64,000 bases of DNA from Candidatus Omnitrophota bacterium (GTDB lineage: Bacteria; Omnitrophota; Gorgyraeia; Gygaellales; Profunditerraquicolaceae), in contig JAQTQJ010000002.1 in assembly GCA_028712255.1 (NCBI GenBank), positions 22,846 through 86,845 of the forward strand. Reading direction: 5' to 3'. The notes under the pieces are model-generated. The model had not been told where the DNA came from and did not search any database. It saw nothing but the letters and a program-made list of their open reading frames with translations. Every line of letters begins with the position of its first letter. Within the stretch, counting starts at the first letter, position 1. Position numbers and translations under genes: made by a program. This document shows, piece after piece, positions 30,643-64,000 of this stretch.

Positions 30643-30664
30643 TATAATAAAAGTTTACGCAATA

Positions 30665-30742
30665 CGGGGCGTGGCTCAGTTTGGCTAGAGCGTCCGCCAT
30701 TAGAACGTTGGCGGACGAGCGCCAAAGATTCAGTGGCGCTCG
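30665..30742 (+). other. 5' half of a tRNA-Pro-like gene (acceptor CGGGGCG plus D arm), followed by a 50-nt double-hairpin element, then disrupted
   Basis: cggggcg tg gctcagtttggctagagcg has the same D arm as the intact tRNA-Pro. Then tccgccattagaacgttggcgga + cgagcgccaaagattcagtggcgctcg. The matching 3' acceptor strand cgccccg is ~590 nt downstream at 31325-31331. Confidence 0.5.
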
Positions 30743-30748
30743 CCTGTT

Positions 30749-31000
30749 TTGATGATTATGTTTGTTTACGTATTAAGAAGTAAAAAAGATAAAAGTCTCT
30801 ATATAGGCTCAACAAAAAATGTAGATCAAAGGTTTAATAGCCATAATAGAGGAGAAAGTTTATCTACAAAATCGAAAAGACCGTGGGTATTAACTAGGGT
30901 TGAGGAATATAATAGTGATTCTTTAGCGTTAAAACGGGAAAAGTTTTTAAAAAGCGGTGAAGGTAGAAGGGTTCTTAAGAATCTAACTTTGTTTAAGTAA
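30749..31000 (+). CDS. Small GIY-YIG nuclease (YhbQ/UPF0213-like, nuclease domain only)
   Basis: GIY-YIG core FVYVLRS…SLYIGSTKNVDQRFNSHNRG, then SLAL.RE..K. Located inside the interrupted tRNA gene, 3 nt upstream of the intact tRNA-Pro. Confidence 0.75.
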   Translation: MMIMFVYVLRSKKDKSLYIGSTKNVDQRFNSHNRGESLSTKSKRPWVLTRVEEYNSDSLALKREKFLKSGEGRRVLKNLTLFK

Positions 31001-31003
31001 TAA

Positions 31004-31078
31004 CGGGGAGTGGCTCAGTTTGGCTAGAGCGCTTGCTTTGGGAGCAAGAGGTCGTGAGTTCAAGTCTCACCTCCCCGA
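31004..31078 (+). tRNA. tRNA-Pro (anticodon UGG)
   Basis: Cloverleaf with C1-G72 acceptor CGGGGAG/CUCCCCG, D arm GCUC-AGUUUGGCUA-GAGC, anticodon stem-loop CUUGC-UUUGGGA-GCAAG, T arm GUGAG-UUCAAGU-CUCAC, discriminator A. No encoded CCA. Confidence 0.85.
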
Positions 31079-31080
31079 CA

Positions 31081-31334
31081 TGTTAACGTATTGTATTTGG
31101 CTAGAGCGTCCGCCATTAGAACGTTGGCGGACGAGCGCCAAAGATTCAGTGGCGCTCGCTTGCTTTGGGAGCAAGAGGTCGTGAGTTCAAGTCTCACCTC
31201 CCCGACATGTTAACGTATTGTATTTGGCTAGAGCGTCCGCCATTAGAACGTTGGCGGACGAGCGCCAAAGATTCAGTGGCGCTCGCTTGCTTTGGGAGCA
31301 AGAGGTCACAGATTCAAGTCCTGTCGCCCCGATA
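31081..31334 (+). repeat. Two tandem ~127-bp units derived from the 3' three-quarters of tRNA-Pro, each carrying the identical 50-nt double-hairpin insert between tRNA positions 26 and 27
   Basis: Each unit is tgttaacgtattgta + tttggctagagcg + [50-nt insert] + cttgctttgggagcaag aggtc + T arm + acceptor 3' strand. Unit 1 ends ctcacctccccgaca, identical to the intact tRNA-Pro. Unit 2 ends acagattcaagtcctgtcgccccgata, complementary to the orphan 5' half at 30665. Confidence 0.6.
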
Positions 31335-41328: not shown

Positions 41329-41781
41329 ATGTGGGAGTCATACAGAGACATCATCCGGAGCTATCCTAGAATTCCCCTCTTTGAAGAAAGGCGTTTGATT
41401 CTCAAAGCTCAAAAAGGTTCAAAGAAGAGTAAAGATGAGCTTGTCCTTAGCCACGTTAGTTTTTTAATCTTTAGAATCCATAAAATCGCATTTCCTTCGT
41501 TGGTTCGGTCCTTTGGAGAGGATCTACTAGCAGAAGCTATCCTTATCGTTTATAAGAAGATCGAAAGCTATGACCTTAATTACTGTGATAAGCATGGCAA
41601 TCCTAATCCAGTTAAATTTACTTCTTACATTTGGAAGCGAATCGATGGGTTCATAATCGATGCTTTAAAGAAAGAGCTCAGCGAGTCAAATTATTACGAT
41701 AGATACAGCGGATACGTCCTTAAAAATGGGGATTTATCGTTTATGTCCGGGTCAATAGAGTCGGACAATTTTATCTCTTGA
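41329..41781 (+). CDS. Sigma-70 region-2-only protein (sigma-factor-like; region 4 absent), paralog 1
   Basis: EERRLILKAQKGSKKSKDELVLSHVSFLIFRIHKIA…GEDLLAEAILIVYKKIESYD…FTSYIWKRIDGFI follows the sigma-70 region 1.2/2.1-2.4 pattern. The ~150-aa length leaves no room for regions 3 and 4. Confidence 0.55.
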   Translation: MWESYRDIIRSYPRIPLFEERRLILKAQKGSKKSKDELVLSHVSFLIFRIHKIAFPSLVRSFGEDLLAEAILIVYKKIESYDLNYCDKHGNPNPVKFTSYIWKRIDGFIIDALKKELSESNYYDRYSGYVLKNGDLSFMSGSIESDNFIS

Positions 41782-48761: not shown

Positions 48762-49057
48762 AAGAGTATACTATCTTAGGTATAGCCGCGGTTTTATTGA
48801 CTGTCTACTTAGATAAGGCCAGCCATATTAACCTGCTTAAGAAAAAGGGGTACTATGTATTTATCCTGGTAATTCTATTTTTTAAAATGTTGGTGAACGG
48901 TTATTTAACCGGCAAGCAAATTGTAATGTATCGGCCGCAATTTTTTTTGGGATTAAGGATAGGGAGTATTCCTCTGGAAGATTTTTTATTTGGCTTTAGC
49001 ATGGTAACCATGACCATAATTTTCTGGGAGTATTTTAAAAAGAGGCAGGCATGTTAA
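48758..49057 (+). CDS. Lycopene cyclase-domain small membrane protein (second half)
   Basis: Paralogous ~99-aa membrane protein with PLED motif (IPLEDFLFGFSM). Confidence 0.6.
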   Translation: MKEYTILGIAAVLLTVYLDKASHINLLKKKGYYVFILVILFFKMLVNGYLTGKQIVMYRPQFFLGLRIGSIPLEDFLFGFSMVTMTIIFWEYFKKRQAC

Positions 49058-49947
49058 AAAGATCAATATTATTTTTCGTTGCATTTTCTTTTTTAGGGAT
49101 AAATTTATCTTACGGTTTAGATTGGAAAGAGTTGCATGAAAAAGCAGATAATATGATTTTATCGGATATCTTAGCCGATGTTAAGGCAAGGCCTGATTCT
49201 ATAAATGATTTATATGTTCTGGGTTTGGTCTATTTGAATTTACATAAGGATAAAGAAGCAGGAGAGGCTTTTAATAAAGTTTTAACTTTAGACCCTAGGG
49301 CAATCGAGGCAAAATGGGGAAAGGCTGAAGTCCTGCGCCGGCGGCATCAGCCGCAGAAAAGCGAAGAGCTGTTAAGCGGGGTATTAAAACAGAATCCCGA
49401 TTTCCCCCCGGCCTCTATAACCCTGGCTTATATAAGATACACCCAGATGAATTTTAAAGCAGCGGTCAGATTGGCTATAACGGTATTGAGACAGGGAGAA
49501 AAAAATGTTGACCGGGGCAATCAGGTGCGTGCCCATTTGATATACGGAGGTACAAAGGGTATGATCGCGCACTACGGAGGCCCTCTCTCAAAGATCATCA
49601 ATGGCACAGCGGTATTACCGAGCTTAAAGGCGGCGGAGAGATTACAGCCTGAATCAGCGGAGGTCAAATTTGGCTTGGGTAGTTTTTATCTTTTGGCGCC
49701 TGCTTTAGCCGGGGGAAATTTGGAAAAGGCAGAAGCTTATCTCAAAAAAGCAGTTGAAAATGATCCGCTATTTGCTGATGCTTATGTAAGATTGGGTCAG
49801 CTTTATAAAGTTAAGGGTGATGACGTAAGATATAATAAATATTTAAATAAAGCGCTGGAGATTGATCCTCAGAACGAATTAGCACTGGATATCAAAAGTG
49901 GCACATGTAAATTTATTTGTTTTAATAAAGGCATAGAATCAAATTAG
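49051..49947 (+). CDS. Secreted TPR-repeat protein
   Basis: Signal peptide, then several TPR-like helical repeats (…AGEAFNKVLTLDP…, …AEAYLKKAVENDP…, …NKYLNKALEIDP…). Confidence 0.5.
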   Translation: MLKRSILFFVAFSFLGINLSYGLDWKELHEKADNMILSDILADVKARPDSINDLYVLGLVYLNLHKDKEAGEAFNKVLTLDPRAIEAKWGKAEVLRRRHQPQKSEELLSGVLKQNPDFPPASITLAYIRYTQMNFKAAVRLAITVLRQGEKNVDRGNQVRAHLIYGGTKGMIAHYGGPLSKIINGTAVLPSLKAAERLQPESAEVKFGLGSFYLLAPALAGGNLEKAEAYLKKAVENDPLFADAYVRLGQLYKVKGDDVRYNKYLNKALEIDPQNELALDIKSGTCKFICFNKGIESN

Positions 49948-50196
49948 TTGTAAGTTTACCGGTCGCTGTTCGATGTAAAAGTATAACCGATTACGGAATA
50001 GGAAAGGCCCCCAAGCAATATCGTTCTCTGGTGGTAACTATTTTTGGGATTTTTATGTATGAAAAAATAGCGTAGCGGCATTGGAGCAGGCCAGGACGGT
50101 GGCAGTTAATGTGCTTGTTTTCGGAGAACTTTTTCATCTTTTTAGCTGCCGGTCTCTAACCCGGTCGATGTCCGCTCTCGGAGTGTTCTCTAACAG

Positions 50197-50628
50197 GTGG
50201 ATATTCTTCGGCGTTATCCTAGAATTTCCCTATCTGAAGAAAGACGTTTGATTCACAAGGCTCAAAATGGTTCAAAGAAAAGCAAGGAAGAGCTTGTATT
50301 GCGTCATGTTGGCTTTGTAATTTTTAGAATTCACAAAGTAGCGTTTCCTGCCTTGATCCAGAGATTTGGAGACGACCTGCTTGAAGAAGCCATCCTGATT
50401 ATCTATAAAAAAATCGAAAGCTATAACCTTGATTACCGCGATAAGAAAGGCAATCCTAATCCGGTGAAATTTACCTCTTACATTTGGAAACGGATCGATG
50501 GTTTTATAATCGTTTCATTAAAGAAGGAGCTTGGCGAGTCAAATTATTACGATAGGTATAGCGGATATGCCCTTAAAATTTATAAAAAGACACTTTCCAG
50601 CATAAAATTGGTGCAGTTTTCTGATTGA
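50197..50628 (+). CDS. Sigma-70 region-2-only protein, paralog 2
   Basis: About three-quarters identical by eye to the 41329 paralog over the whole protein (EERRLIHKAQNGSKKSKEELVLRHVGFVIFRIHKVA…FTSYIWKRIDGFII). GTG start. Confidence 0.55.
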   Translation: MDILRRYPRISLSEERRLIHKAQNGSKKSKEELVLRHVGFVIFRIHKVAFPALIQRFGDDLLEEAILIIYKKIESYNLDYRDKKGNPNPVKFTSYIWKRIDGFIIVSLKKELGESNYYDRYSGYALKIYKKTLSSIKLVQFSD

Positions 50629-52395: not shown

Positions 52396-55081
52396 CTTTA
52401 AAGATTTAAAGATAATTGATCTTATGGTTGCAATTAACCAGCGTTTTTCTGATATCCCTGCTTTACAGATCAAAGAATATGGTAAGTTTAGGGCTCTTTC
52501 TTATATTGATCTTGGGAGGCGGACCGCAGATACCGCTCATAATTTAAAAAAATTGGGAGTAGATCGAGGAAATAGAGTAGCTATTTTGTCTGAAAGTAGG
52601 CCTGAATGGGCCATCGCTTTCTTTGGCATTGTTTCTTGCGCTGGCATTACTGTTCCAATGGATGTGAAATTGAGTGATGCAGAAGTAGAATTTATTATTA
52701 ATGATTCTGGTGCTAAGTGTATTTTTATTTCCAATAAGTTTTTGGAAAGGATTAAAGGGCTAAGGCCAAAGCTTAAATTTATTGAACATATTATTTGTTT
52801 AGATAATGATGCAAAAGAAGATGTAATACTATTGAAAGATTTCAAAGTTTCCGAAAAGGAAGTTACGTATAGAGAAATAAAGGAAGATGATGTTGCAGTA
52901 ATAGTTTATACTTCCGGGACAACAGGTGTTGCTAAGGGCGTAGAACTAACTTATAAGAATTTATTGTTCGAAGTTACCTCTTTACACGATTTGATTAATT
53001 TTAATGACAAGGATGAGTTTTTATCCATTTTGCCTCTTAATCACATGCTTGAGTTAACAGGTGGTCTCCTTGGCCCTCTGTATGCGGGTGCGACAGTAAC
53101 TTATTGTGATAGTTTAAAACCTACAAATATCCTTCAATTGATGAACGAAACAAAATCGACAGTTATGATTTGCGTTCCTCTTGTTTTGAAGATGTTTCAT
53201 AATAGCATAATGAATAAAATATATGATCTGCCGGAAATTAAAAGGCTATTTGTTAAAACCTTACTTAATATTTCAAGATTTTTGCTAAAATTTCATATAC
53301 GAGTTGGTAAAGTTTTATTTATGTCAATACATAAGCAATTTGGATCAAATATACGTGGTTTTGTTTCCGGAGGCGCCCCGTTAGATGCAATTGTAGAACT
53401 TAATTTCAACGCTATGGGTTTTAGGATATTGCAAGGTTATGGTTTAACAGAAACAGCTCCAGTAATTACAGTTAATAATTTTGAAGATTGCAAATATGGA
53501 TCTGTCGGCAAGCCTTTGCCTGGAGTTGATGTAAAGATTATTCCAAATAACGAAACTGGTGGTAAGGATGGAGAGATTGTCGTTTGCGGTCCGAATGTCA
53601 TGAAAGGTTATTATAAAAGCGAAGAAAAGACAAAAGAAGTTTTAAAAGAAGGCTGGTTTCATACTGGTGATATTGGTTATTTTGATGTGGATGGTTTTTT
53701 ATTCATTTCGGGGAGAATAAGAAACTTGATAGTTTTAGGTTCAGGGAAGAAGGTATTTCCAGAAGAGATTGAAGAAGTAATGTCGGCCAGCCAGTATATA
53801 AAAGAAATATGTGTTTTAGGAAAGGTTGCCCAGCAAGGAATAAGAAAAGGTTGTGAAGAAGTTTATGCAGTTGTTGTCCCAAATTTAGATATGTTTGATA
53901 AAGAAAATAGAGTAAATAAAGAGTTTGTTAGGGAAAAGATCAATTCTGAGATATTAAGGTTGGGAGCAAATTTGGCTGAATATAAAAGAATAATGAATTT
54001 TGATATTTTTTATGATGAGTTGCCAAAGACATCAACGCGTAAAATAAAAAGGAAGGTTCTGTTGGAGCTTATTTCGAAAGCTGGAGTAGAGACAGAAAAG
54101 GAAGAATTTATTGAATCTACCCAGATCATGGAAGATGATTTTACCTTAAAATTAAGAAAAATAATTTCTGATTTAGCAAAGATTTCTCCTGAGAGAATAA
54201 CTCTTAATGCAGCACTTTATAATGATTTAGGGGTTGATTCTCTAATGAAAGTAGAGATTTTGACAAGTATACAAAAAGAACTCGGCATTAATATTCCGGA
54301 TAGTTTGAGTTATGAAATTAATACTCTTGGAGATTTAATAAAATTTGCTAAAGAATATAAAGCTGGTAGGAGTGGTGATGAGGAAGGAGAAAATAAAGAG
54401 GTTAATGATTTTGTAAATAAAAGGGTAAAATTCAAGTTAACACATGATGCCGCATATTTTATTTTTAAGTCCTTTTTTAAGATTTATTTTAATAAAACCG
54501 TATTTGGGTTAGAAAATATACCTCGTAATGGTTCATTTATTATTGCTGCAAATCATACCAGCTTATTGGATTTTCCTTTAATTATGACCAGTTTGCCTTA
54601 TGAGAAAATGAAAAACGTATTTGCTCCTGCCGCACAAGATTATTTTTATGTTAAGAAATATCGTAGAGCAATAATAGAATTATTATTTAATACGTTTCCT
54701 TTCGAAAGAATGGGAGATTTTGTAAAAGGATTAAAGATATGTGAGGCCCTTGTTAAAAACAATTGTTCGATAATTCTCTTCCCGGAAGGCACAAGAGTCA
54801 TGTCTGATCAATTACAGCCGTTTAAACCTGGATTAGGATCTTTGGCTTTAAATTTAAATGTTCCAATTTTACCAGTTTATATTGAAGGTGCTTTTAGGGC
54901 TATGCCAAAAGGGAAAGCTTTTCCTTCGCCAAGCAAGATTGAAATAATATTTGGGAAGGCTATATACCCAGATAAAATGGATTTATCAAATATTGTAAAT
55001 AATTACGAAAAATATGTTTATCTTTCTAAGGTATCTTTTGATGAAGTAGTTAAATTAAAAGAAAGAGGGCGAGGAAAATGA
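52382..55081 (+). CDS. Triple fusion: AMP-dependent acyl-CoA/acyl-ACP synthetase + acyl-carrier-protein domain + lysophospholipid (PlsC-type) acyltransferase
   Basis: AMP-binding motifs (YTSGTTGVAKGV; GYGLTETA; TGDIGYFD…GR), a phosphopantetheine site (LGVDSLMKVE), then acyltransferase motifs NHTSLLD (HX4D) and FPEGTR. ATG 52382 lies behind an agaggaaa RBS. Confidence 0.75.
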   Translation: MPNVSFKDLKIIDLMVAINQRFSDIPALQIKEYGKFRALSYIDLGRRTADTAHNLKKLGVDRGNRVAILSESRPEWAIAFFGIVSCAGITVPMDVKLSDAEVEFIINDSGAKCIFISNKFLERIKGLRPKLKFIEHIICLDNDAKEDVILLKDFKVSEKEVTYREIKEDDVAVIVYTSGTTGVAKGVELTYKNLLFEVTSLHDLINFNDKDEFLSILPLNHMLELTGGLLGPLYAGATVTYCDSLKPTNILQLMNETKSTVMICVPLVLKMFHNSIMNKIYDLPEIKRLFVKTLLNISRFLLKFHIRVGKVLFMSIHKQFGSNIRGFVSGGAPLDAIVELNFNAMGFRILQGYGLTETAPVITVNNFEDCKYGSVGKPLPGVDVKIIPNNETGGKDGEIVVCGPNVMKGYYKSEEKTKEVLKEGWFHTGDIGYFDVDGFLFISGRIRNLIVLGSGKKVFPEEIEEVMSASQYIKEICVLGKVAQQGIRKGCEEVYAVVVPNLDMFDKENRVNKEFVREKINSEILRLGANLAEYKRIMNFDIFYDELPKTSTRKIKRKVLLELISKAGVETEKEEFIESTQIMEDDFTLKLRKIISDLAKISPERITLNAALYNDLGVDSLMKVEILTSIQKELGINIPDSLSYEINTLGDLIKFAKEYKAGRSGDEEGENKEVNDFVNKRVKFKLTHDAAYFIFKSFFKIYFNKTVFGLENIPRNGSFIIAANHTSLLDFPLIMTSLPYEKMKNVFAPAAQDYFYVKKYRRAIIELLFNTFPFERMGDFVKGLKICEALVKNNCSIILFPEGTRVMSDQLQPFKPGLGSLALNLNVPILPVYIEGAFRAMPKGKAFPSPSKIEIIFGKAIYPDKMDLSNIVNNYEKYVYLSKVSFDEVVKLKERGRGK

Positions 55082-55689
55082 TTACGGTTTACGATTTAAA
55101 ACCGCGTTTTCAAAAAATTCTACAACCAACTATGCAATATCTTATCAAAAAAGGGGTAACTCCTAATATTGTTACTTTTATGGCGCTTTTAGGATCTTTT
55201 TTAGTAGCGATTTTTTCCATTATTCTTAAAGATCGTGCTTGGATTTTGTTAATTTTACCTATGTGGTTATTCATTAGGATGGCTTTAAACGCAATTGATG
55301 GAATGATGGCTCGACAATTTAATTTATCTTCTCGTCTTGGCGCTGTCTTAAATGAAACAGGAGATATCCTTTCTGATATTTTTCTTTATCTTTCTTTAAT
55401 TGTTTTCTACCCTGGTGTATTATGGGCTATATATCTTTTCGTTATTTTAGCTATTTTAACAGAATTCTGTGGAGTTTTAGGACAAGCTCTGGGGGTTGGC
55501 CGTTGTTATGACGGGCCGATGGGTAAAAGCGATAGAGCTTTTTTTGTTGGCTTACTAGCGGTTATTTCTTTTATTTTCCCTTCAGTATTTAAATTGTGGA
55601 GCTATTTTTTTTATGGAGTTTCTTTCTTAAGTATTTTAACCTGTTGGAATAGACTCCGTCATAGTTTAAAAAGTAGGGAGCAAGGATGA
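55078..55689 (+). CDS. CDP-alcohol phosphatidyltransferase-family protein
   Basis: DG(x)2AR…G(x)3D(x)3D signature: AIDGMMARQFNLSSRLGAVLNETGDILSD. Confidence 0.8.
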   Translation: MITVYDLKPRFQKILQPTMQYLIKKGVTPNIVTFMALLGSFLVAIFSIILKDRAWILLILPMWLFIRMALNAIDGMMARQFNLSSRLGAVLNETGDILSDIFLYLSLIVFYPGVLWAIYLFVILAILTEFCGVLGQALGVGRCYDGPMGKSDRAFFVGLLAVISFIFPSVFKLWSYFFYGVSFLSILTCWNRLRHSLKSREQG

Positions 55690-56639
55690 AAGAACTCTTT
55701 TTATCTCTTACGTTGACACAGCAAGGCGGAATCATTGTTTTATTTTTATTGATACCTGCCTCAGCTATTCTTTATATTTTAAAGAAGATTCGTCCAGATA
55801 CTGACTGGGCCGAACTTGGTAATCGTATAAAGGCTTGGTGGATTATGGCCGTAGTTTTTCTTACAGCTATGTCAGTGAACCGTAATATTTCAATCGTTTT
55901 TTTCGCTCTTTTAAGTTTTTTAGCTTTGAAAGAATATTTTTCCATTTTTAAAACGAGATTGGTTGATCAACGCGCTATTTTTTGGGCATTTTTAACCATA
56001 CCTATTCAATATTATTGGATTGTCACACAGTGGTATGGTATGTTCTTGATTTTTATTCCTGTTTATATGTTTTTATTTCTTCCAGTTCGTCTGGTTTTGG
56101 TCGGAGAAATGCAAGGCTTTTTAGCGGCGGCTTCCAGGATTCAATGGGGTATTATGGCATTTGTATTTGGTTTGGGCCACATTGCCTATCTTTTAACTTT
56201 ACCACAACTTTCTGGTATTAAGGTTAGCGGAACCTCCTTGGTTTTCTTTCTCGTTTTAATGACCGAGTTGGGTGATGTTTCTCAATATATTTGGGGTAAG
56301 ATTTTGGGGAAACATAAAATCCTGCCATTGGTGAGTCCTAAAAAGACGTGGGAGGGATTTTTAGGTGGGGTTTTTTCAGCGATGATTCTTGGTGCCGTGT
56401 TTAGATTTTTAACTCCTTTTTCAGTAGCCAGCGCTATTGTAATAGGAGCTATTATTGCGATTGTTGGTTTTTGTGGGGATGTGGTTATGTCTGCCGTTAA
56501 AAGAGATGCAGGTGTTAAGGATTTCGGACAACTGATTCCAGGCCACGGTGGAATGCTAGATCGTGTTGACTCTCTATGTTTTACTGCGCCTGTATTCTTT
56601 CACATTGTAGTATTTTTTTATTACTCTCACTTATCATAA
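55686..56639 (+). CDS. cdsA: Phosphatidate cytidylyltransferase-family protein (CdsA-like, N-terminally extended)
   Basis: C-terminal CdsA signature KRDAGVKDFGQLIPGHGGMLDRVDS. Confidence 0.75.
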   Translation: MKELFLSLTLTQQGGIIVLFLLIPASAILYILKKIRPDTDWAELGNRIKAWWIMAVVFLTAMSVNRNISIVFFALLSFLALKEYFSIFKTRLVDQRAIFWAFLTIPIQYYWIVTQWYGMFLIFIPVYMFLFLPVRLVLVGEMQGFLAAASRIQWGIMAFVFGLGHIAYLLTLPQLSGIKVSGTSLVFFLVLMTELGDVSQYIWGKILGKHKILPLVSPKKTWEGFLGGVFSAMILGAVFRFLTPFSVASAIVIGAIIAIVGFCGDVVMSAVKRDAGVKDFGQLIPGHGGMLDRVDSLCFTAPVFFHIVVFFYYSHLS

Positions 56640-56923
56640 TAATTGTGTGATTTCAATAAAGAGGGGGTCTCCCTTGATTAGGATTATTTTTTTTATGGGG
56701 ATTTTTTCAGGCTACTATTTTTTTCTTAGCTCCTGACGTTTATTTAACGGGAGTTGTTCTAAAGGCTGATTTAAAGAAAACATTAGGGGCTCTTTTAGTG
56801 GGAGCTCTTGTATATTATTTTGCTTTCATGTATCCTTTGAAAACATTAAATTGGTTCGATCATATTCCGGGAATTTTTGTAAAACTAATTCAGGATGTCC
56901 GCTTTTTATTGAAAGGAGAGGCC

Positions 56924-57301
56924 ATGTTAATGAGAATGATGGGAGTTATTTTATTAACCCTAATTATAGGAGGCTGCGCGACAGGCGTAAAGAAACAAAC
57001 AACGCAGCAATCAGACTATCAGTGGCCTTCGCAAACATATCAACAAAATACTTCTTCTTGGGATTATGAAGATGTCCAGCCAGCCAAAAGCACAACATAT
57101 TCCGTTCCTGTTAACTTAAGTGCGAAGCAAATTCAAAGGGCATTAAAAAGCGCCGGTTTTTATCAAGGAGCGGTTGACGGTAAAATCGGGCCCAAGACTA
57201 AGAGTGCTATCATAAAATTTCAGAAAGCACATAATCTTAAGGCAGATGGTGTTGTAGGCAAGAGAACATCGATGGAGCTAAATAAATATTTATCTGAATA
57301 A
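56924..57301 (+). CDS. Lipoprotein with C-terminal peptidoglycan-binding (PG_binding_1) domain
   Basis: Lipobox LIIGGC, then GFYQGAVDGKIGPKTKSAIIKFQKAHNLKADGVVG. ATG 56924 lies behind a gaaaggagag RBS. The upstream in-frame extension to 56798 is discounted. Confidence 0.65.
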   Translation: MLMRMMGVILLTLIIGGCATGVKKQTTQQSDYQWPSQTYQQNTSSWDYEDVQPAKSTTYSVPVNLSAKQIQRALKSAGFYQGAVDGKIGPKTKSAIIKFQKAHNLKADGVVGKRTSMELNKYLSE

Positions 57302-57371
57302 TGAAAGCAAAGGTAAAAGCGCAATAGTATAGAGCGATAATCTAGTATTCGGTTTAGTTCTAGGATTTTGT

Positions 57372-58412
57372 TTGAGAAAGGATTCTATGGTTAAAACTAA
57401 GATAATCTGCACGCTTGGCCCGGCATCATCAAGGGCGAGGATACTTAGAAAAATGATTCTTGCCGGCATGGATGTCGCCCGTTTGAACTTCTCGCACGGT
57501 AAACCGCGGGAGTTACTTGATAGAATAGGCTTCATTCGGATATTAAACGCGAAATACCGTAGGCACATAAAGCTTCTAGGCGATCTTCAGGGGCATCGAA
57601 TAAGGATAGGAGAGCTCGTTGCTCCAGCTTTGCTTAAAAAAAGCCGGATTGTATGGCTTACTCAGCAAAACATAAAAGGATCGCATGAAATTATACCTTT
57701 GGATTACCGCGGCCCGCTAATCAGTATTAAGAACGGCCACCGGATATTCATCGATGATGGAAATATTGGTTTAGAAGTGATCGGTAGGGCTAAAAACAAA
57801 CTTAAGGCCAAGGTGATAACCGGCGGCCTGCTTAAGGAGCATAAGGGCGTAAATATCCCGGAGGCAAGGCTTGAATTCGGTGGTATAAGCCAGAAGGATA
57901 TGCAGGATATATCTTTTTGCGAAAAACATGGCGTGGAATATATCGCCCAGTCATTCGTGCGCACAAAGAGGGATATAATGGATGTAAGAGGGGTTCTCGG
58001 GGAAAGCTCTCAGATTAAGATTATCGCTAAAATCGAGAATAGGGAGGGCATAAAGAATGTCGATGAAATAATTAAGGTTTCCGATGGCATTATGATAGCG
58101 CGCGGAGATATGGGGGTATCGCTGCCCATCTATGAAATACCCGTTATCCAAAAGATGATTATAAAAAAATGTAACCGTGCAAGAAAGTTTGTTATTACCG
58201 CAACCCAGATGCTTGAGAGCATGACTGAAAATCTTAGGCCTACCCGCGCTGAGGTAACGGACGTGGCAAATGCCATAATCGACGGCACTGATTTTGTGAT
58301 GCTTTCGGCAGAATCAGCCGTGGGTAAATACCCGGTTGAAACGGTTGCTATGATGAATAATATCATAAAATTTACGGAAGGTTATTTAAAAGAAAAGAAA
58401 GCTTCAGAATAG
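57372..58412 (+). CDS. pyk: Pyruvate-kinase-like protein lacking the C-terminal domain (A + B domains only)
   Basis: PK N-terminal signature [10 protein letters not shown]…[13 protein letters not shown] and TIM-barrel motifs (KIIAKIEN; MIARGDMGV; ATQMLESM). Ends after the A-domain at 346 aa, where canonical PKs continue with a further C-terminal domain. Confidence 0.7.
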
Positions 58413-58465
58413 ATACCTCGCGCTAATTGGTATTGCGCGAGTGTTGTCTAGGTAGACAAGGAGCT

Positions 58466-58528
58466 CATGATGACCAGATTAAGAAAGTATTTTATAACCG
58501 GGCTAGCAGTGATAGTGTTGGTTTTTTG
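58466..58528 (+). pseudogene. Truncated duplicate of the 5' end of the DUF502 gene (MMTRLRKYFITGLAVIVLVF*)
   Basis: Roughly 48 of 57 nt identical by eye to 60040-60100, the start of the intact DUF502 gene. Closed by a stop after 20 codons. Confidence 0.4.
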
Positions 58529-58832
58529 ACGACTTAATTTGGCTGAATAGAATATTATTTTGATTTACTATTTTGATAAATTAGCCTAATTGTTAAAGTT
58601 TCTATTGTATAAAACTAGGTTTTAAAACAAACGGAGGAATTAAATGTTTAGGGTGAACATTCTCGAAGCAGAGGATTACTCAGCCTGAGTCCGTCAGAAG
58701 GTCAGAAGACTGTGGTTTGGTTTTGGTAGCCAAAATCACTAACCTCATAAATTTAAAAAAATAATATGGGTAGAGTATTTATTTTTAGGTTTTTTATTTA
58801 ATTTATGCGGGATACAAAAGGAGAATGTAAAA

Positions 58833-59459
58833 ATGTGGGGATTAATAGTTAAGGGCGGTCCTGTAATGATACCCATAATAATGGGTTCAATAATCGGCTG
58901 GGCGTTAGTTTTGGAAAGGCTTTGGGTTTTTAGAAAAATGAGTACTTTGAATAGCTATGAATTTGTGCAGGAGATTTTTAGAAATATAAAATCCCGCGAT
59001 ATTAAATCTGCTATGCAGTTATGCGAAGAGAACATAAAACATCCTATTGCAGCCGTATTTAAGGTGGGCATTGAAAGAAGGTTGCTGCCGATGGATAGGT
59101 TAGAGAAAATTCTTGAACAGGTTGGGAATAATCAGGTTGAAAGGCTGGAAAAATTTCTCGGCGTCATCGCTTCAGTTATTTCCATAGAGCCTCTTTTGGG
59201 GTTTTTAGGCACTATAACAGGTTTAATCAAAGCTTTTATGTCTTGGGAACATGCGGGAGCGGATATAACGGTGAATGTTCTTGCGGGCGGAATCTACGAA
59301 GCTATGATTACCACAGCCGCGGGATTGATTATTGCCATACCTCTTTATCTTTTTTATAACTATCTCATTAATTGTATTAAGCGCATTTCAAATAGTCTTA
59401 ATAACCACACAATACAGCTTATAGAATTGTTCTCTGAAACTAATGAGTCAACACGGTAA
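58833..59459 (+). CDS. tolQ: MotA/TolQ/ExbB-family proton channel
   Basis: Three TM helices with the conserved GFLGTITGLIKAF… segment. Confidence 0.8.
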   Translation: MWGLIVKGGPVMIPIIMGSIIGWALVLERLWVFRKMSTLNSYEFVQEIFRNIKSRDIKSAMQLCEENIKHPIAAVFKVGIERRLLPMDRLEKILEQVGNNQVERLEKFLGVIASVISIEPLLGFLGTITGLIKAFMSWEHAGADITVNVLAGGIYEAMITTAAGLIIAIPLYLFYNYLINCIKRISNSLNNHTIQLIELFSETNESTR

Positions 59460-59471
59460 GGAAAATAGGAT

Positions 59472-59882
59472 ATGAATATTTCTGGCAAACGTGATTATAC
59501 GATTAGTTTGGAATCAGTGGTAATGACGGATATCGTGCTCAATATGTTTATTTTCTTTTTCATATCTTTCAGCCTTTTGTATACCATAAATCCTTGGAAA
59601 AAACTGGATATGAAATTACCTAAGGCAGAACATGCCTCTACCATTAAGGATAAAGGGCAGATTAACATCACTATTAGTGCCGACGGCCCCGTTTACTTAA
59701 ACAAAGAGTTGGTTACTATGAAAGAACTAAAAGAAAGAGTTTTATTACGATACAAAGCTAATCTCGACGTTTCTGTGCTGTTATGCGCTGATAAACGCCG
59801 TTCTTTTAGGGATGTTGTGCGTGTATTGGATATATTAAGTGGTATTGGAATCACCCGACTTGATATCGCAGCTGTTGAATAA
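59472..59882 (+). CDS. tolR: ExbD/TolR-family biopolymer transport protein
   Basis: Single N-terminal TM, then the ExbD periplasmic domain (…QINITISADGPVYLNKE…). Confidence 0.8.
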   Translation: MNISGKRDYTISLESVVMTDIVLNMFIFFFISFSLLYTINPWKKLDMKLPKAEHASTIKDKGQINITISADGPVYLNKELVTMKELKERVLLRYKANLDVSVLLCADKRRSFRDVVRVLDILSGIGITRLDIAAVE

Positions 59883-60035
59883 GAATAGAGCAAAAATTTA
59901 TTCTAGCGTTTTTTCTACAGAAAGTATTTAAAACCGAGCCCTTAGTAAACTTTGGTTGGTTTTTTGTATTCGGGATTCCTTCACTTCTTTTGTGGGCAAT
60001 GGATGTTTGGAATGGGGACAAAATGAGGATCTTTT

Positions 60036-60626
60036 ATGAATAGATTAAGGAGATATTTTATAACTGGATTGGCAGTGGTAGTACCGGTTTTTTTGACGGT
60101 TTATATTTTGGTGGCCTCATTCCGTTTTATCGATAATATCTTAGGTAGGTTTTTAAACGTTTATTTCAAAAATACCCTGGGATTTTATATTCCCGGTTTA
60201 GGTATTCTAATTTTTATTTTACTCATACTTTTGGTCGGATTTTTAGCTAATCGTTATATAGGTAAAAGGATTTTTCCTTTTATTGATAAGTGGTTCTCTA
60301 ACTTACCCTTAATCAGGAATATTTATCCTACCTTTAAGCAAGTTATTTCATTTATTTTAGCGCAAAAAGAATTCGGATTTAAGAAGGTGGTCTTAGTAGA
60401 GTATCCTTCAAAAGGTATACGGTCTTTAGGATTTTTAACAAACGAAGAATTCCCGAAATTAAGCCAAATATCAAATAAGGCTATGGTATCAATTTTTATG
60501 CCTACTTCTCCCGGGCCATTTACCGGAGTTGTTATTTTTGTAGCCAAAGAAGATTTAAATTTTCCGGATATCTCTATCGCGGACGCCTTCAAAATTATTA
60601 TTTCTGGGGGTGTTTTTAAGCCATGA
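60036..60626 (+). CDS. DUF502-domain membrane protein
   Basis: N-terminus MNRLRRYFITGLAVVVPVFLTVYIL and the DUF502 core (…GFLTNE…FMPTSPGPFTG…). Confidence 0.75.
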   Translation: MNRLRRYFITGLAVVVPVFLTVYILVASFRFIDNILGRFLNVYFKNTLGFYIPGLGILIFILLILLVGFLANRYIGKRIFPFIDKWFSNLPLIRNIYPTFKQVISFILAQKEFGFKKVVLVEYPSKGIRSLGFLTNEEFPKLSQISNKAMVSIFMPTSPGPFTGVVIFVAKEDLNFPDISIADAFKIIISGGVFKP

Positions 60627-60704
60627 TTCACTAATGTTTACCCCAAAGAAATGGACAAGATATAACACTTTATTTTTAAGATAGTTGTGCAATTTCTATC
60701 CAAG

Positions 60705-60755
60705 GGCATGATGGATAATATTATAAAATTTACGGAAGAATATTTAAAGGAATAG
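60705..60755 (+). repeat. Duplicate of the last ~17 codons of the pyruvate-kinase-like gene, placed directly before the P-type ATPase start
   Basis: ggcatgatggataatattataaaatttacggaagaatatttaaaggaatag matches gctatgatgaataatatcataaaatttacggaaggttatttaaaagaa…tag at 58349-58412, about 40 of 45 nt by eye. Confidence 0.4.
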
Positions 60756-60758
60756 AGC

Positions 60759-63500
60759 ATGCCTGGTGAAATACTAGATTTTACTAAAGAATTTTGGCAT
60801 TCGTTGCCTGTTGATGAAGCTGTTAAGCGGCTCGAAGTAGATATTTCTGTTGGTTTATCTTCGGATGAGGTTAGGAAACGCAAGGAACGCTTTGGTTTAA
60901 ATCAAATCACTCCTAAAAAAGGCATACCCCTGTGGCTGCGTTTCTTGCTGCAATTTCATCAGCCTCTCATATATATTCTTCTGGCGGCGACTGCGACCAC
61001 GCTATTCTTAAAAGAATGGGTTGATGCTTCGGTAATTTTTGGAGTCATTCTTATCAATGCCATAGTTGGTTTTCTGCAGGAAGCCAAGGCCTTAAAAGCC
61101 CTTGAAGCCCTTTCTCGCTCTATGACATCTTCTGTTTCTGTGTTAAGAGACGGTAAGGAACAGCATATTACCTCTACCGAGTTGGTTCCTGGGGATGTGG
61201 TTATGATTGCTTCCGGTGATAAAATTAGCGCAGATATGCGTCTTATTTATAGTAGGGATATGCAAGTTAATGAATCGCCTCTCACAGGTGAGTCTATTCC
61301 GGTTGAGAAGCAAATCGATTCCCTCGATGTTAAAACCGTTTTGGCAGATAGATTAAATATGCTTTATGCCTCTACTTTTGTTACCTATGGCCGGGGTAAG
61401 GCCATTGTTACCGCCACAGGAGATGCCACCGAGGTCGGGCGAATCTCAGAGTTGATTACTGCGGCTGAAGATTTAGAAACTCCTCTTACAATTAAAATAG
61501 CCCACTTTAGCCGTTACCTCTTATTTGTTATCATGGGGTTGGCAGCATTTACTTTTGTTGTGGGTGTGCTTCGGGGCAAATCATCTGCGGAAATGTTTAT
61601 GGCTGCGATTGCACTTGCGGTAGGGGCGATTCCTGAGGGACTGCCTGCGGCGGTAACGATAACGCTCGCGATAGGCGTGGCAAGAATGGCTAAGCGCCGT
61701 GCCATTATTCGTAAGCTGCCAGCAGTGGAGACGCTCGGTAGTACCGGCGTTATTTGTTCTGATAAAACCGGAACGCTTACCGAGAATCAAATGACCGTGC
61801 AGGAGATTTTTAGCGCAGGCCAGACATATCAGGTTTCAGGAGTGGGATATAGTTTTGAGGGCGCTATTCAAGGGCTTTCGCGAACGCCCGGAGAGAAATC
61901 TTCCGTAGCTCTTAAGGAATGCCTGGCCGCAGGTATATTGTGTAATGACAGCAGAATTGTGGATAAGAAAGGGGTGTTTCAGGTTGAGGGTGACCCGACA
62001 GAAGCGGCGCTTATTGTATCCGCGAGTAAAGGGAAGAGTTTATTTCCCGAGGGTATGCCTGCGTTGCCGCGCAAAGATTCTATTCCGTTTGAATCGGAAT
62101 ATCAATACATGGCGACATTTCATATTTTACCCAACGGGGACGGAGTTGTTTATTTAAAAGGTTCAGTAGAAAAGATTTTAGCCAAATGCGCTAATCATCT
62201 CGATGAAAATGGCGATATCCGTCCTTTGAAACGTGCCCTAGTTGAGCATCAGATTGAACTTATGGCGGCAAGAGGGCTAAGAGTGCTTGCCTTTGCCCGT
62301 GGCAGTATTTCTTCGCAGAAAGATAGGATTGATCATGGCGATATTACTGAGTCTCTAACCTTTTTAGGGCTACAGGGAATGATAGATCCTCCGCGCAAAG
62401 AAGCGATTGAGGCTGTGCGGCGTTGTCATTCCGCAGGAATTCTTGTGAAGATGATAACTGGAGATCATGCGCTAACGGCTAAAGCCATTGCTGAGCAATT
62501 AAACCTAAAAAGTCGTCTTGGCGAGGAAGGGTCAATTAAAGGTCTAGTGGCGTTGAGCGGAAGCGAACTTGAAAATATGAACGATGAGGAATTACAGGAA
62601 TCTGTTGATCGGGTCAGTGTTTTTGCCCGCGTGACTCCGGAACAGAAGCTGCGGCTTGTTAAAGCGATCCAAACAAGAGGTTATATTGTAGCTATGACCG
62701 GAGACGGCGTCAATGATGCCCCGGCTCTTAAACAAGCTAATATAGGCGTTGCTATGGGGCGTACAGGCACAGAGGTTGCCAAAGAAGCTGCGGATATGGT
62801 TTTAACCGATGATAATTTTGCTTCAATTGAGGCTGCGGTCGAGGAGGGACGGTGCGTTTTTGATAACCTAAGAAAATTCATTGTCTGGACATTGCCGACA
62901 AACTTAGGCGAAGCCCTTGCTATCATGGTTGCCATTTTTGCAGGTATTGTGCTTCCCGTTGCGCCGGTTCAATTACTTTGGATAAATATGACTACCGCTC
63001 TATGTTTGGGTATGATGTTAGCTTTTGAGTCTAAGGAACCCGATTTGATGCAACGGCCTCCCCGTGATCCTAAAATGCCGATTATGACAGGAGAGCTTAT
63101 CTCTCGGACAATTTCGGTAGGCGTACTTTTAGCTCTTGGGGTTTTTGGGCTCTTTTTCTATGAAAGAAATAACAGACTAAGCATTGCGGAGGCGCGAACT
63201 GCGGCTGTCGGCGTGTTGGTCATGGGCGAGCTTTTCTATCTTCTTAATTGCCGTTCCTTGTCGAAGTCAATATTCGCTTTGGGGGTATTTTCGAACCGTT
63301 GGTTGATTTCCGGGGTCTTAATCATGATAGGTTTACAGATGCTTTTTACCTATACTCCCGCTATGAATCGTTTTTTCCATAGCGCGCCGATTTCATTTGA
63401 TGCTTGGGTGCGGATTTTCTTGATAGGCTTGTCGATTTACGGTATTATAGAAGTGGAAAAGTGGGGCCGCAGGTGGTTCTTAAATCGAAAACGGCCATGA
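60759..63500 (+). CDS. P-type (P2, Ca2+/cation-transporting) ATPase
   Basis: Phosphorylation motif CSDKTGTLTEN, MITGDH, GDGVNDAPALKQANIGVAMG, and 10-TM topology. Confidence 0.9.
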   Translation: MPGEILDFTKEFWHSLPVDEAVKRLEVDISVGLSSDEVRKRKERFGLNQITPKKGIPLWLRFLLQFHQPLIYILLAATATTLFLKEWVDASVIFGVILINAIVGFLQEAKALKALEALSRSMTSSVSVLRDGKEQHITSTELVPGDVVMIASGDKISADMRLIYSRDMQVNESPLTGESIPVEKQIDSLDVKTVLADRLNMLYASTFVTYGRGKAIVTATGDATEVGRISELITAAEDLETPLTIKIAHFSRYLLFVIMGLAAFTFVVGVLRGKSSAEMFMAAIALAVGAIPEGLPAAVTITLAIGVARMAKRRAIIRKLPAVETLGSTGVICSDKTGTLTENQMTVQEIFSAGQTYQVSGVGYSFEGAIQGLSRTPGEKSSVALKECLAAGILCNDSRIVDKKGVFQVEGDPTEAALIVSASKGKSLFPEGMPALPRKDSIPFESEYQYMATFHILPNGDGVVYLKGSVEKILAKCANHLDENGDIRPLKRALVEHQIELMAARGLRVLAFARGSISSQKDRIDHGDITESLTFLGLQGMIDPPRKEAIEAVRRCHSAGILVKMITGDHALTAKAIAEQLNLKSRLGEEGSIKGLVALSGSELENMNDEELQESVDRVSVFARVTPEQKLRLVKAIQTRGYIVAMTGDGVNDAPALKQANIGVAMGRTGTEVAKEAADMVLTDDNFASIEAAVEEGRCVFDNLRKFIVWTLPTNLGEALAIMVAIFAGIVLPVAPVQLLWINMTTALCLGMMLAFESKEPDLMQRPPRDPKMPIMTGELISRTISVGVLLALGVFGLFFYERNNRLSIAEARTAAVGVLVMGELFYLLNCRSLSKSIFALGVFSNRWLISGVLIMIGLQMLFTYTPAMNRFFHSAPISFDAWVRIFLIGLSIYGIIEVEKWGRRWFLNRKRP

Positions 63501-63525
63501 TTGGGCAAGAATTATAATTATCCTT

Positions 63526-63561
63526 GACAATGGACTTAATAATTGTAAGATAGTTGCATAT
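63526..63561 (+). promoter_or_regulatory. Sigma-70-type promoter (TTGACA, 16 nt, TAAGAT) ahead of a structured leader/possible small RNA
   Basis: ttgacaatggacttaataattgtaagat. Followed by three hairpins and a T-run before the hflK RBS. Confidence 0.3.
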
Positions 63562-63700
63562 AGCTAAGATTTTATAGTCTCATAAAAATGGGTTCAGGAG
63601 TATCTTCCTGAAGGTTTAGATGGTCGGGCCGCCATCTGCGATTATCGCAGGTGTCGGTTTTTTATTTTTTAGCGTTTAAGTTAAAAGAAAGGAGTCTTTT

Positions 63701-64000
63701 ATGGATTGGCAGAATATTCCTAATCCGGATGATATAATTGATATAGGCAAAAAGAAGTTTCTTAATTATGGTAAATATATCCCTTGGATAGTATTAGGCC
63801 TGATTCTTATTGTGGGGCTAAAAGGTGTAATCTATTCAATAGGCCCGGATGAGGTAGGCGTAATCCAGAGGTTCGGTAAATATCTTGGTTTAAGCTCGCC
63901 AGGGCTGCATACGAAGATTCCTTTTGGAATTGACAAAGTAACTCCTATCAAGGTAGAAAAGATTTTTAAAGAAGAATTTGGGGTTAGAAACATAAACACA
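63701..64000 (+). CDS. hflK: SPFH/band-7 protein (HflK-like), 5' partial at window edge
   Basis: N-terminal TM then SPFH signature …GPDEVGVIQRFGKYLG…PGLHTKIPFGID. ATG behind an aaaggag RBS. Continues beyond the window. Confidence 0.75.
   Translation, partial: MDWQNIPNPDDIIDIGKKKFLNYGKYIPWIVLGLILIVGLKGVIYSIGPDEVGVIQRFGKYLGLSSPGLHTKIPFGIDKVTPIKVEKIFKEEFGVRNINT

Follow-up and report, generated by a model that had tools for sequence, protein, structure and literature searches.

In canonical pyruvate kinases (PKs), both the allosteric effector site and the C-C tetramer interface reside in the C domain. In the bacterial enzymes of this type (Escherichia coli PykF; PDB 1PKY, 4YNG, 8EDS), this domain accompanies a (beta/alpha)8 A domain and a beta-barrel B domain, whereas the NCBIfam equivalog model NF005234 (PRK06739, 352 positions) describes naturally short PKs devoid of it, so that short PKs are already known at the database level. 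Homology-facilitated illegitimate recombination and Campbell-type integration are described for naturally transformable bacteria. The gene relics of streamlined bacterial genomes are short, frameshifted or stop-truncated ends with an intact copy nearby, and TolQ-TolR and ExbB-ExbD pairs associate MotA_ExbB and ExbD domains in operon order. These subjects meet in a locus of Candidatus Omnitrophota bacterium (assembly GCA_028712255.1), analyzed here within a 64,000-nt stretch, hereafter the window (contig JAQTQJ010000002.1, positions 22,846-86,845, forward strand). There, a short PK gene is separated from a P-type ATPase gene by a tolQ-exbD pair and a DUF502 gene, and two pairs of repeated gene ends frame this interval in a nested A1-B1-...-B2-A2 layout. 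A1 and A2 are copies of the PK 3' end, B1 and B2 copies of the DUF502 5' end.

As in homology-facilitated illegitimate recombination, one joint of the locus lies in a homologous segment, the last helix of PK, and the other lacks homology, with the insertion standing between short diverged direct repeats of gene ends and no transposase or integrase being present. The locus departs from the described cases in that the mechanism is deduced from its product alone and that two events are apparently nested. The truncated copies B1 and A2 resemble gene relics of streamlined genomes. Unlike usual relics, they match intact junctions of relatives base for base, which dates them as recent and identifies the source arrangement. 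The TolQ-ExbD pair has the domains and gene order of its described counterparts, but differs from them by its sub-cut-off scores and by the presence of a DUF502 membrane protein alongside it, both in the window and, with the gene order inverted, in distant relatives.

Two pairs of repeated gene ends

Both repeat pairs are genuine and beyond chance. An earlier note, made by eye from the sequence, had reported that the final codons of the PK gene recur before the ATPase start and that the DUF502 start recurs as a stop-closed copy after the PK gene. Repeat A (58350-58398 versus 60708-60756) is identical at 43 of 49 nt (88%), with E=5.9e-10 in a self-blastn of the 64-kb window and a local alignment score of 68, against 17.7 +/- 3.0 (maximum 36) in 1000 dinucleotide shuffles. 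Repeat B (58470-58527 versus 60036-60093) is identical at 45 of 58 nt (78%) and, if a single 1-nt gap is allowed, can be prolonged to about 58540/60108 (E=1.3e-5 in the same search; score of 57 against 16.5 +/- 2.5, maximum 30, in dinucleotide shuffles). For both pairs, z is about 16-17 versus the shuffles. Thus, the self-comparison by which the earlier note proposed to check its repeats finds both of them significant, the shuffles agree, and the nested layout is borne out with coordinates shifted by only 1-3 nt.

Junctions shared with related genomes

Relatives were taken from a comparison set of 171 loci (designated by L numbers), consisting of 80 genomic loci that surround PK relatives, 80 metagenomic ones that surround TolQ relatives and 11 contigs retrieved by exact protein look-up. 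Some searches, namely that for stubs and the blastn and tblastx searches of the filler and joint described below, were run when the set stood at 166 loci. The window carries the remains of two junctions that are intact in related Omnitrophota, PK-spacer-DUF502, with DUF502 cut to 62-65 nt, and PK-ATPase, with PK cut to 49 nt. B1 and A2 are thus relics of a DUF502 gene and of a PK gene, respectively, located at recombination joints.

For the first junction, the DUF502 gene directly follows PK in eight close relatives (L002, L004, L009, L051, L063, L169, L170 and L171; 81-92% amino acid identity), and the intact DUF502 of the window is 88-92% identical to the PK-linked DUF502 of L002, L009, L063, L169, L170 and L171. 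Window positions 58300-58531, which cover the PK end, a 54-nt spacer and B1, are colinear with L009 4152-4393 (87.6% over 242 nt) and likewise with the intact junctions of L002, L004 and L063. The spacer, which is ancestral for the PK-DUF502 junction, has 94.6% identity to L009 over 56 nt and a two-piece match to L002. The homology of B1 to intact DUF502 genes then ends abruptly at 58531. The GC hairpin of this spacer, together with its 'GTCTnnnTAGACAAGGAG' sequence, recurs in L063 (11484-11539) before an unrelated gene, and may be a common intergenic terminator/ribosome-binding-site module of these genomes.

For the second junction, a P-type ATPase gene follows PK, often overlapping its stop, with 87-89% identity to the window ATPase in L008, L010 and L082 and with other paralogs elsewhere. 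Window positions 60707-60800 (A2 and the ATPase start) align colinearly, with 86% identity over 95 nt, to the end of PK and the start of the ATPase gene in L008, and the corresponding junctions of L013, L010 and L082 match as well. The locus comparison that the earlier note had called for accordingly finds PK adjoining or overlapping the ATPase gene in L082, L008 and L010, and in the ancestral arrangement PK was immediately followed by the P-type ATPase gene.

The sequence between the two relics also has identifiable relatives. In L003, PK is followed by TolQ, 98 nt past the PK stop and with no DUF502 relic between them, and both the 42-nt TolQ leader and the TolQ gene of the window are homologous to this locus. 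Downstream of exbD, window positions 59911-59987 match L088 1128-1204 at 77%, and the alignment continues through the end of the spacer (60035) to the DUF502 start codon. L088 has a tolQ-exbD-DUF502' arrangement, DUF502' being a 46% paralog that is also found at this place in L028. The DUF502 3' end with its downstream sequence (60560-60664) matches L009 at 82%. The filler at 58532-58790 and the joint at 60665-60707 have no significant relative by blastn or tblastx in the 166 loci and the window, neither of them being decayed DUF502 or PK sequence. An Rfam scan of 57000-61200 at E<=1 returned no RNA family. A promoter-like TTGACG-16-TAGAAT (58526-58553, 10 of 12 matching positions) lies across the B1/filler joint, so that the DUF502 relic supplies the -35 box with its final 6 nt and the unrelated filler supplies the -10 box. 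It is not callable as a functional promoter. Promoter-like sites (10) are not above the number in shuffles (12 +/- 3.2).

B1 and A2 might be regarded as functional small open reading frames (ORFs) under selection, A2 as a 15-codon upstream ORF coupling ATPase translation and B1 as a 20-aa membrane peptide. Their frames are open from ATG to stop (20 codons from ATG 58467 to TGA 58527-58529 in B1; 15 codons, 60708-60755, in A2). B1 retains AAGGAG. In A2, whose end is separated from the ATPase ATG by 3 nt, lies the AAGGAA ribosome-binding site of the ATPase gene, 7 nt ahead of this ATG. The overlap of the ATPase start with the PK stop in relatives also implies translational coupling. However, no detached A-like or B-like stub was found elsewhere among the 166 loci, hence no evolutionary conservation. 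Moreover, the TGA that closes B1 was created by a 1-nt deletion in a T-run relative to intact DUF502 genes, and A2 differs from L008 by a nonsense change (CAG to TAG) and a 1-nt deletion. A selected role for the stubs is therefore considered very improbable.

An assembly artifact, in which contigs of two strains were mis-joined at shared sequence, would be another way to such a layout, as the source is a contig of a metagenome-assembled genome (MAG) and both junction types co-occur, L082 and L169 coming from one sample. This explanation is hardly credible. Indeed, two independent Logan contigs from SRR22315508, L168 (58206-59552) and L167 (59528-61022), are 100% identical to the window over 58206-61022 and together cover all four repeat copies and each joint. 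Assembler k-mers are commonly of at least 21 nt, so that the longest exact matches (16 nt between A1 and A2, 11 nt between B1 and B2) are too short for a mis-join, and the joints fall outside the shared sequence.

A variable interval with mosaic alleles

The closest syntenic relative, L082, shows the order peptidoglycan-binding lipoprotein gene (PGb, 90%)...PK (86%)-ATPase (89%)-Band_7, with PK and ATPase overlapping. Compared with it, the window has 2,358 bp extra between PK and ATPase, bounded by A1 and A2. The insertion between PK and ATPase envisaged in the earlier note is upheld by this comparison, whereas its idea that tolQ, exbD and DUF502 arrived as one cassette is not, since DUF502 natively follows PK in eight genomes. 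On the right-hand side, the Band_7 gene is 82-87% identical to that of L082, L001 and L083 (tblastx). The PK...Band_7 interval measures 0.67 kb in L050, 2.4 kb in L001/L083, 2.9 kb in L082 and 5.2 kb in the window (58412-63596). It contains a hypothetical gene, a CBS gene and a Na+/H+ exchanger gene in L001/L083, and the ATPase gene in L082. L082 also has a DUF502 gene about 8 kb upstream of PK, which was not among the at least 120 homologs listed when tolQ-exbD preceding DUF502 was sought.

The PK gene itself has a body of one affinity and a tail of another. In a nucleotide tree, the body (last 60 nt excluded) groups with L001/L083 at 100% bootstrap. In contrast, the last ~150 nt of PK with the spacer and B1 are 92% identical to L002 and L009, though the PK bodies of these loci are only 79-81% identical to that of the window; against L001, L083 and L082, this stretch reaches 27-47% identity. 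The A1 tail type is common to DUF502- or TolQ-linked PKs (L003, L004, L007, L009 and L002), and the EEYLKE* tail of A2 resembles the EEYLRKQSHA* tail of L008. A split of the PK genes into alpha and beta clades, suggested by a neighbor-joining protein tree, was rejected for want of nucleotide bootstrap support, which is restricted to the window+L001/L083 group and a few small groups. The body-versus-tail contrast is relied on instead.

The alleles point in the same direction. B1 is 93% identical to the L004 allele and 94% to the L009 allele, and B2 is 92% identical to the L002 allele, compared with 78% between B1 and B2. Likewise, A1 is 98% identical to L003 and 94% to L004, compared with 88% between A1 and A2. 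Neither A1/A2 nor B1/B2 are each other's closest relatives, as copies arising by in-situ duplication would be. As each relic is nearer to alleles of other genomes than to its partner, recombination between lineages is indicated rather than duplication in situ. The recombination at the PK 3' end and DUF502 5' end inferred in the earlier note is consequently supported by junction colinearity, while its single duplication in place is contradicted by these allele affinities.

Proposed history of the locus

It is considered reasonably probable that the locus is a recombinant mosaic, formed by nested splicing of diverged haplotypes in the variable interval that the conserved short PK and Band_7 genes anchor on either side. 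As all eight closest DUF502 orthologs elsewhere directly follow PK, tolQ-exbD would have entered between PK and DUF502. In a first step, a tolQ-exbD segment from a locus of the tolQ-exbD-DUF502' type may have been spliced into a PK-DUF502 haplotype about 62 nt inside DUF502, bringing along the filler that precedes it and the spacer that follows it. The intact DUF502 start (B2) would then have been supplied by the incoming or recombined DNA, with the resident start stranded as B1. In a second step, the block formed by the PK tail, the spacer, B1, tolQ, exbD, DUF502 and about 80 nt would have been joined into a PK-ATPase haplotype. One end would result from a homologous crossover within or close to repeat A, the conserved segment encoding the last helix of PK, and the other from an illegitimate joint, leaving the last 49 nt of the recipient's PK, A2, before the ATPase gene.

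Such a process could correspond to a single crossover (Campbell-type, through a circular intermediate) or to homology-facilitated illegitimate recombination, with donor DNA from a diverged lineage. Selection would have preserved PK, DUF502 and the translation-initiation region of the ATPase gene, only redundant stubs surviving besides them. As A2 carries the ATPase ribosome-binding site, it could not be lost entirely. No transposase or integrase gene was found, all genes in 55078-63500 having ordinary Pfam assignments, and the block is not bounded by strong inverted repeats. The flanking repeats consist of diverged coding sequence (49 and 58 nt) rather than of a target-site duplication, and thus do not correspond to those of a transposon, insertion sequence or integron cassette. 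A tandem duplication followed by deletion was set aside, as it needs at least three events and predicts B1 and B2 to be sister copies.

Several points weigh against this history. No intermediate arrangement, for example PK-relic-tolQ-exbD-DUF502 without A2, is present among the 171 loci, so that the order and number of events are inferred, not observed. The repeats are short (49-65 nt), and the allele affinities rest on 3-13 nt differences. The PK genes are mosaic in other respects too and, with poor support for the deep branches of their tree, the assignment of haplotypes outside the window/L001/L083 group is loose. Deeper relatives carry the order DUF502-tolQ-exbD, which could provide another route to a DUF502 relic upstream of tolQ. 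Finally, the analysis covers 64 kb of the genome, and a second PK or DUF502 copy is possible elsewhere.

The loss of paralogs is the principal alternative, possible though unlikely. An ancestor with the order PK_a-DUF502_a...tolQ-exbD-DUF502-...PK_b-ATPase would have undergone two illegitimate deletions leaving B1 and A2, without any insertion. Two short PKs do exist in some Omnitrophota: L052 has two PK-ATPase pairs 6.4 kb apart, and a single MAG contributes both of the PK contigs L004 and L028, with DUF502' followed by PK in L028. The tolQ-exbD-DUF502' order of L088, the divergence of A1/A2 (88%) and B1/B2 (78%), consistent with old paralogs, and another gene relic in the window, an ATPase fragment at 50051-50221 suggestive of ongoing deletion, would also fit. 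On the other hand, the nearest relatives L082 and L001/L083 have one PK only within +/-8 kb, and the DUF502 that follows exbD in the window is of the PK-linked type (88-92%), not the 46% paralog of L088 and L028. A mosaic PK, with its body from one lineage and its tail from another, would still demand recombination besides the deletions.

The short pyruvate kinase

The window PK matches PF00224 (2.9e-111, profile positions 3-328 of 328) and has no match to PF02887 (PK_C). It reaches 439 bits with TIGR01064 against an equivalog cut-off of 306. It aligns to PykF residues 1-338 of 470, sharing the A and B domains of canonical bacterial PKs (45-46% identity) and lacking the whole C domain, in agreement with the short form described in the earlier note. 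The likely true start is ATG 57387, where the homologs, the NCBI protein P0001 (341 aa) and the alignment with PykF all set in, rather than TTG 57372, where the mechanical ORF begins. The Arg/Asn/Ser, Lys-x-Glu, Asp and Thr catalytic motifs of PykF are conserved, and the catalytic residues are invariant in 35 homologs. The AlphaFold model (pLDDT 94.9) has a beta-rich B (lid) insert at residues ~72-156 and a terminal helix of 25 residues (316-340). Against solved PKs, Foldseek gives TM-scores of 0.90-0.92 when normalized to the query and 0.60-0.68 when normalized to the three-domain targets, over 335-347 aligned columns with a root-mean-square deviation of ~2 A. With a dN/dS of 0.09-0.13, the gene is under purifying selection, and its product looks complete for an A+B form.

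The short PK is therefore most likely catalytically competent without a C domain, to judge from its catalytic residues and dN/dS. The earlier note had questioned whether it is functional; that doubt is not supported, in view of the dN/dS, the TIGR01064 score, the invariant catalytic residues and the structural match. The missing C domain would make it a non-allosteric PK, dimeric rather than tetrameric. Its cation-site motif, D-L-Q-G-H-R-I-R-I, has L113, Q114 and I120, but Arg at 117, whereas the K+-independent PK cluster has Lys117 with Leu113, Gln114 and Leu, Ile or Val at 120 (PMC8835810). K+ independence of the window PK is a prediction only. It scores 309.6 bits with NF005234 against a cut-off of 564, aligning to profile positions 5-334 of 352. 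Both forms lack the C domain, and the window PK, being well below the cut-off, belongs to a separate short lineage and not to this family. In the library searched, no paper was retrieved on C-domain-less or truncated natural PKs or on Omnitrophota PKs.

The short form is not restricted to this locus. Lengths of 319-360 aa and PF00224 as the sole domain characterize the top 120 homolog clusters, which have 79-100% identity and come mostly from Omnitrophota MAGs, and one short-PK cluster is annotated from Spirochaetota MAGs. Among representatives of 50%-identity clusters, the best-scoring ones are mostly short (342-358 aa), canonical PKs of ~470 aa appearing from rank 5. In the related loci, 86 of 86 PK genes stop 5-25 codons past the same helix, irrespective of their downstream neighbor. 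The absence of the C domain is thus the ancestral state of the clade, predating the recombination.

The mechanism put forward in the earlier note, a single in-situ cassette insertion that duplicated the PK 3' and DUF502 5' ends and removed the PK C domain, accounts for the genuine nested layout and for a PK without C domain. It is nevertheless extremely improbable. The short PK occurs throughout the clade with the same end helix and varied neighbors, and predominates among the best-scoring cluster representatives. A2 itself carries the short-PK stop region, colinear with L008. A search with a profile built from 111 C domains, covering the window and +/-7 kb around each of the 86 PK genes, detected neither a stand-alone C domain nor a PK_C remnant. 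Besides, the copies are not mutual closest relatives and DUF502 is natively PK-linked. The C domain was therefore not lost in this event.

A short PK gene is directly followed by a P-type ATPase gene in L006, L008, L010, L013, L014, L017, L022, L023, L027, L045, L052 (twice) and L082, frequently with overlap of stop and start. The PK-adjacent ATPases fall into at least three paralog groups, with 35-42%, 66-67% and 77-89% identity to the window ATPase. The recurrence of this PK-pump pairing suggests a functional link. In L013 (1314-1969), the homology between the ATPase after PK and the window ATPase is confined to residues 1-115 and 811-912 of the latter, and the gene looks like an internally deleted pump gene.

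TolQ-ExbD, DUF502 and other features of the window

The features of the locus are gathered in Table 1. The products of tolQ and exbD are recognized at the Pfam level only, the pair missing all of the TolQ, ExbB, TolR and ExbD equivalog cut-offs (TIGR02796, 108 against 221; TIGR02801, 41.8 against 127). No TolA, TolB, Pal or TonB partner gene was found in 55-64 kb. In L101, L104-L108 and L110, whose TolQ is 59-63% identical, DUF502 immediately precedes TolQ-ExbD, separated from it by ~40 nt, an order opposite to that of the window; this hints that DUF502 works with the TolQ-ExbD proton-channel pair. The P-type ATPase is nearest to type IIA Ca2+ pumps but remains under the cut-offs (TIGR01522, 703.7 bits against 798).

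Table 1. Coordinates of the features of the PK...Band_7 locus in the window.
Feature	Position	Strand	Evidence
Peptidoglycan-binding lipoprotein gene (PGb)	56798-57301		
Short pyruvate kinase (PK), A+B domains only, 341 aa from the likely ATG	57387-58412	+	PF00224, TIGR01064, PykF alignment, AlphaFold, Foldseek, dN/dS
A1, live copy of repeat A: second half of last PK helix and start of tail	58350-58398	+	
PK-DUF502 spacer with GC hairpin (58417-58441) and AAGGAG ribosome-binding site	58413-58466	+	Matches L009, L002
B1, DUF502 5' relic, first ~20 codons, frameshifted	58467-58531	+	Colinear with L009; alignment
AT-rich non-coding filler	58532-58790	+	No relative found
TolQ/ExbB-family gene (58833-59459) with 42-nt conserved leader upstream	58791-59459	+	PF01618; homology to L003
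ExbD/TolR-family gene	59472-59882	+	PF02472 at 3e-20
ExbD-DUF502 spacer, native to TolQ-ExbD-DUF502' arrangement	59883-60035	+	Matches L088
Intact DUF502 gene (60036-60626; B2 = first ~64 nt) with 38 nt of native downstream sequence	60036-60664	+	PF04367
Short unmatched joint between DUF502 downstream sequence and A2	60665-60707	+	No homology in any locus
A2, 3' relic (last 15 codons) of a displaced PK gene with a tail of the 'EEYLKE*' type	60708-60756	+	Colinear with L008, L013
Type IIA (PMR1/SERCA-like) P-type ATPase, 913 aa	60759-63500	+	Pfam domains; homology to L008, L010, L082
Band_7/SPFH gene start, conserved right-hand anchor of the variable PK...Band_7 interval	63596-64000	+	tblastx

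Elsewhere in the window, the ATPase fragment at 50051-50221 encodes 57 aa that are 54% identical to residues 799-855 of the window P-type ATPase, its C-terminal membrane segment. It sits between a TPR gene (49051-49947) and an ORF at 50197-50628, and looks like a further gene relic. This ORF and another at 41329-41781, paralogous and of ~145 aa, share a 370-nt direct repeat (41356-41725 versus 50209-50578, 81%); the one at 41329-41781 has only a weak Sigma70_r2 match. A cluster of 97% identical direct/tandem repeats of 72-164 nt lies at ~30650-31320.

Meaning for Omnitrophota and for pyruvate kinases

The feature is a product of ordinary recombination and gene-relic decay, unusually well resolved through its relatives. 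It provides a worked example of tiny diverged repeats traced base for base to intact junctions of relatives, and of gene-order reshuffling in uncultured Omnitrophota without mobile-element genes. The modules seen in the PK-Band_7 interval include a Ca-type P-type ATPase, a Na+/H+ exchanger with a CBS protein, and TolQ-ExbD with DUF502. On a more speculative and rather doubtful view, the interval would be a recombination slot of Omnitrophota in which lineages exchange membrane ion-transport and energy modules, with crossovers in the ultra-conserved segment that encodes the last helix of PK, the minimal PK without effector domain being kept beside, and translationally coupled to, a P-type ATPase in order to feed the pump with ATP locally.

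The residual interest is modest and concerns the short PK, its recurrent pairing with P-type ATPases and the variable PK...Band_7 slot. A misreading is also corrected, as the C-domain-less PK is a conserved and strongly constrained form rather than damage. It is widespread in the phylum and also present in Spirochaetota MAGs, with P-type ATPases as frequent operon partners. As a natural minimal PK without effector domain, it would be a reasonable target for biochemistry.

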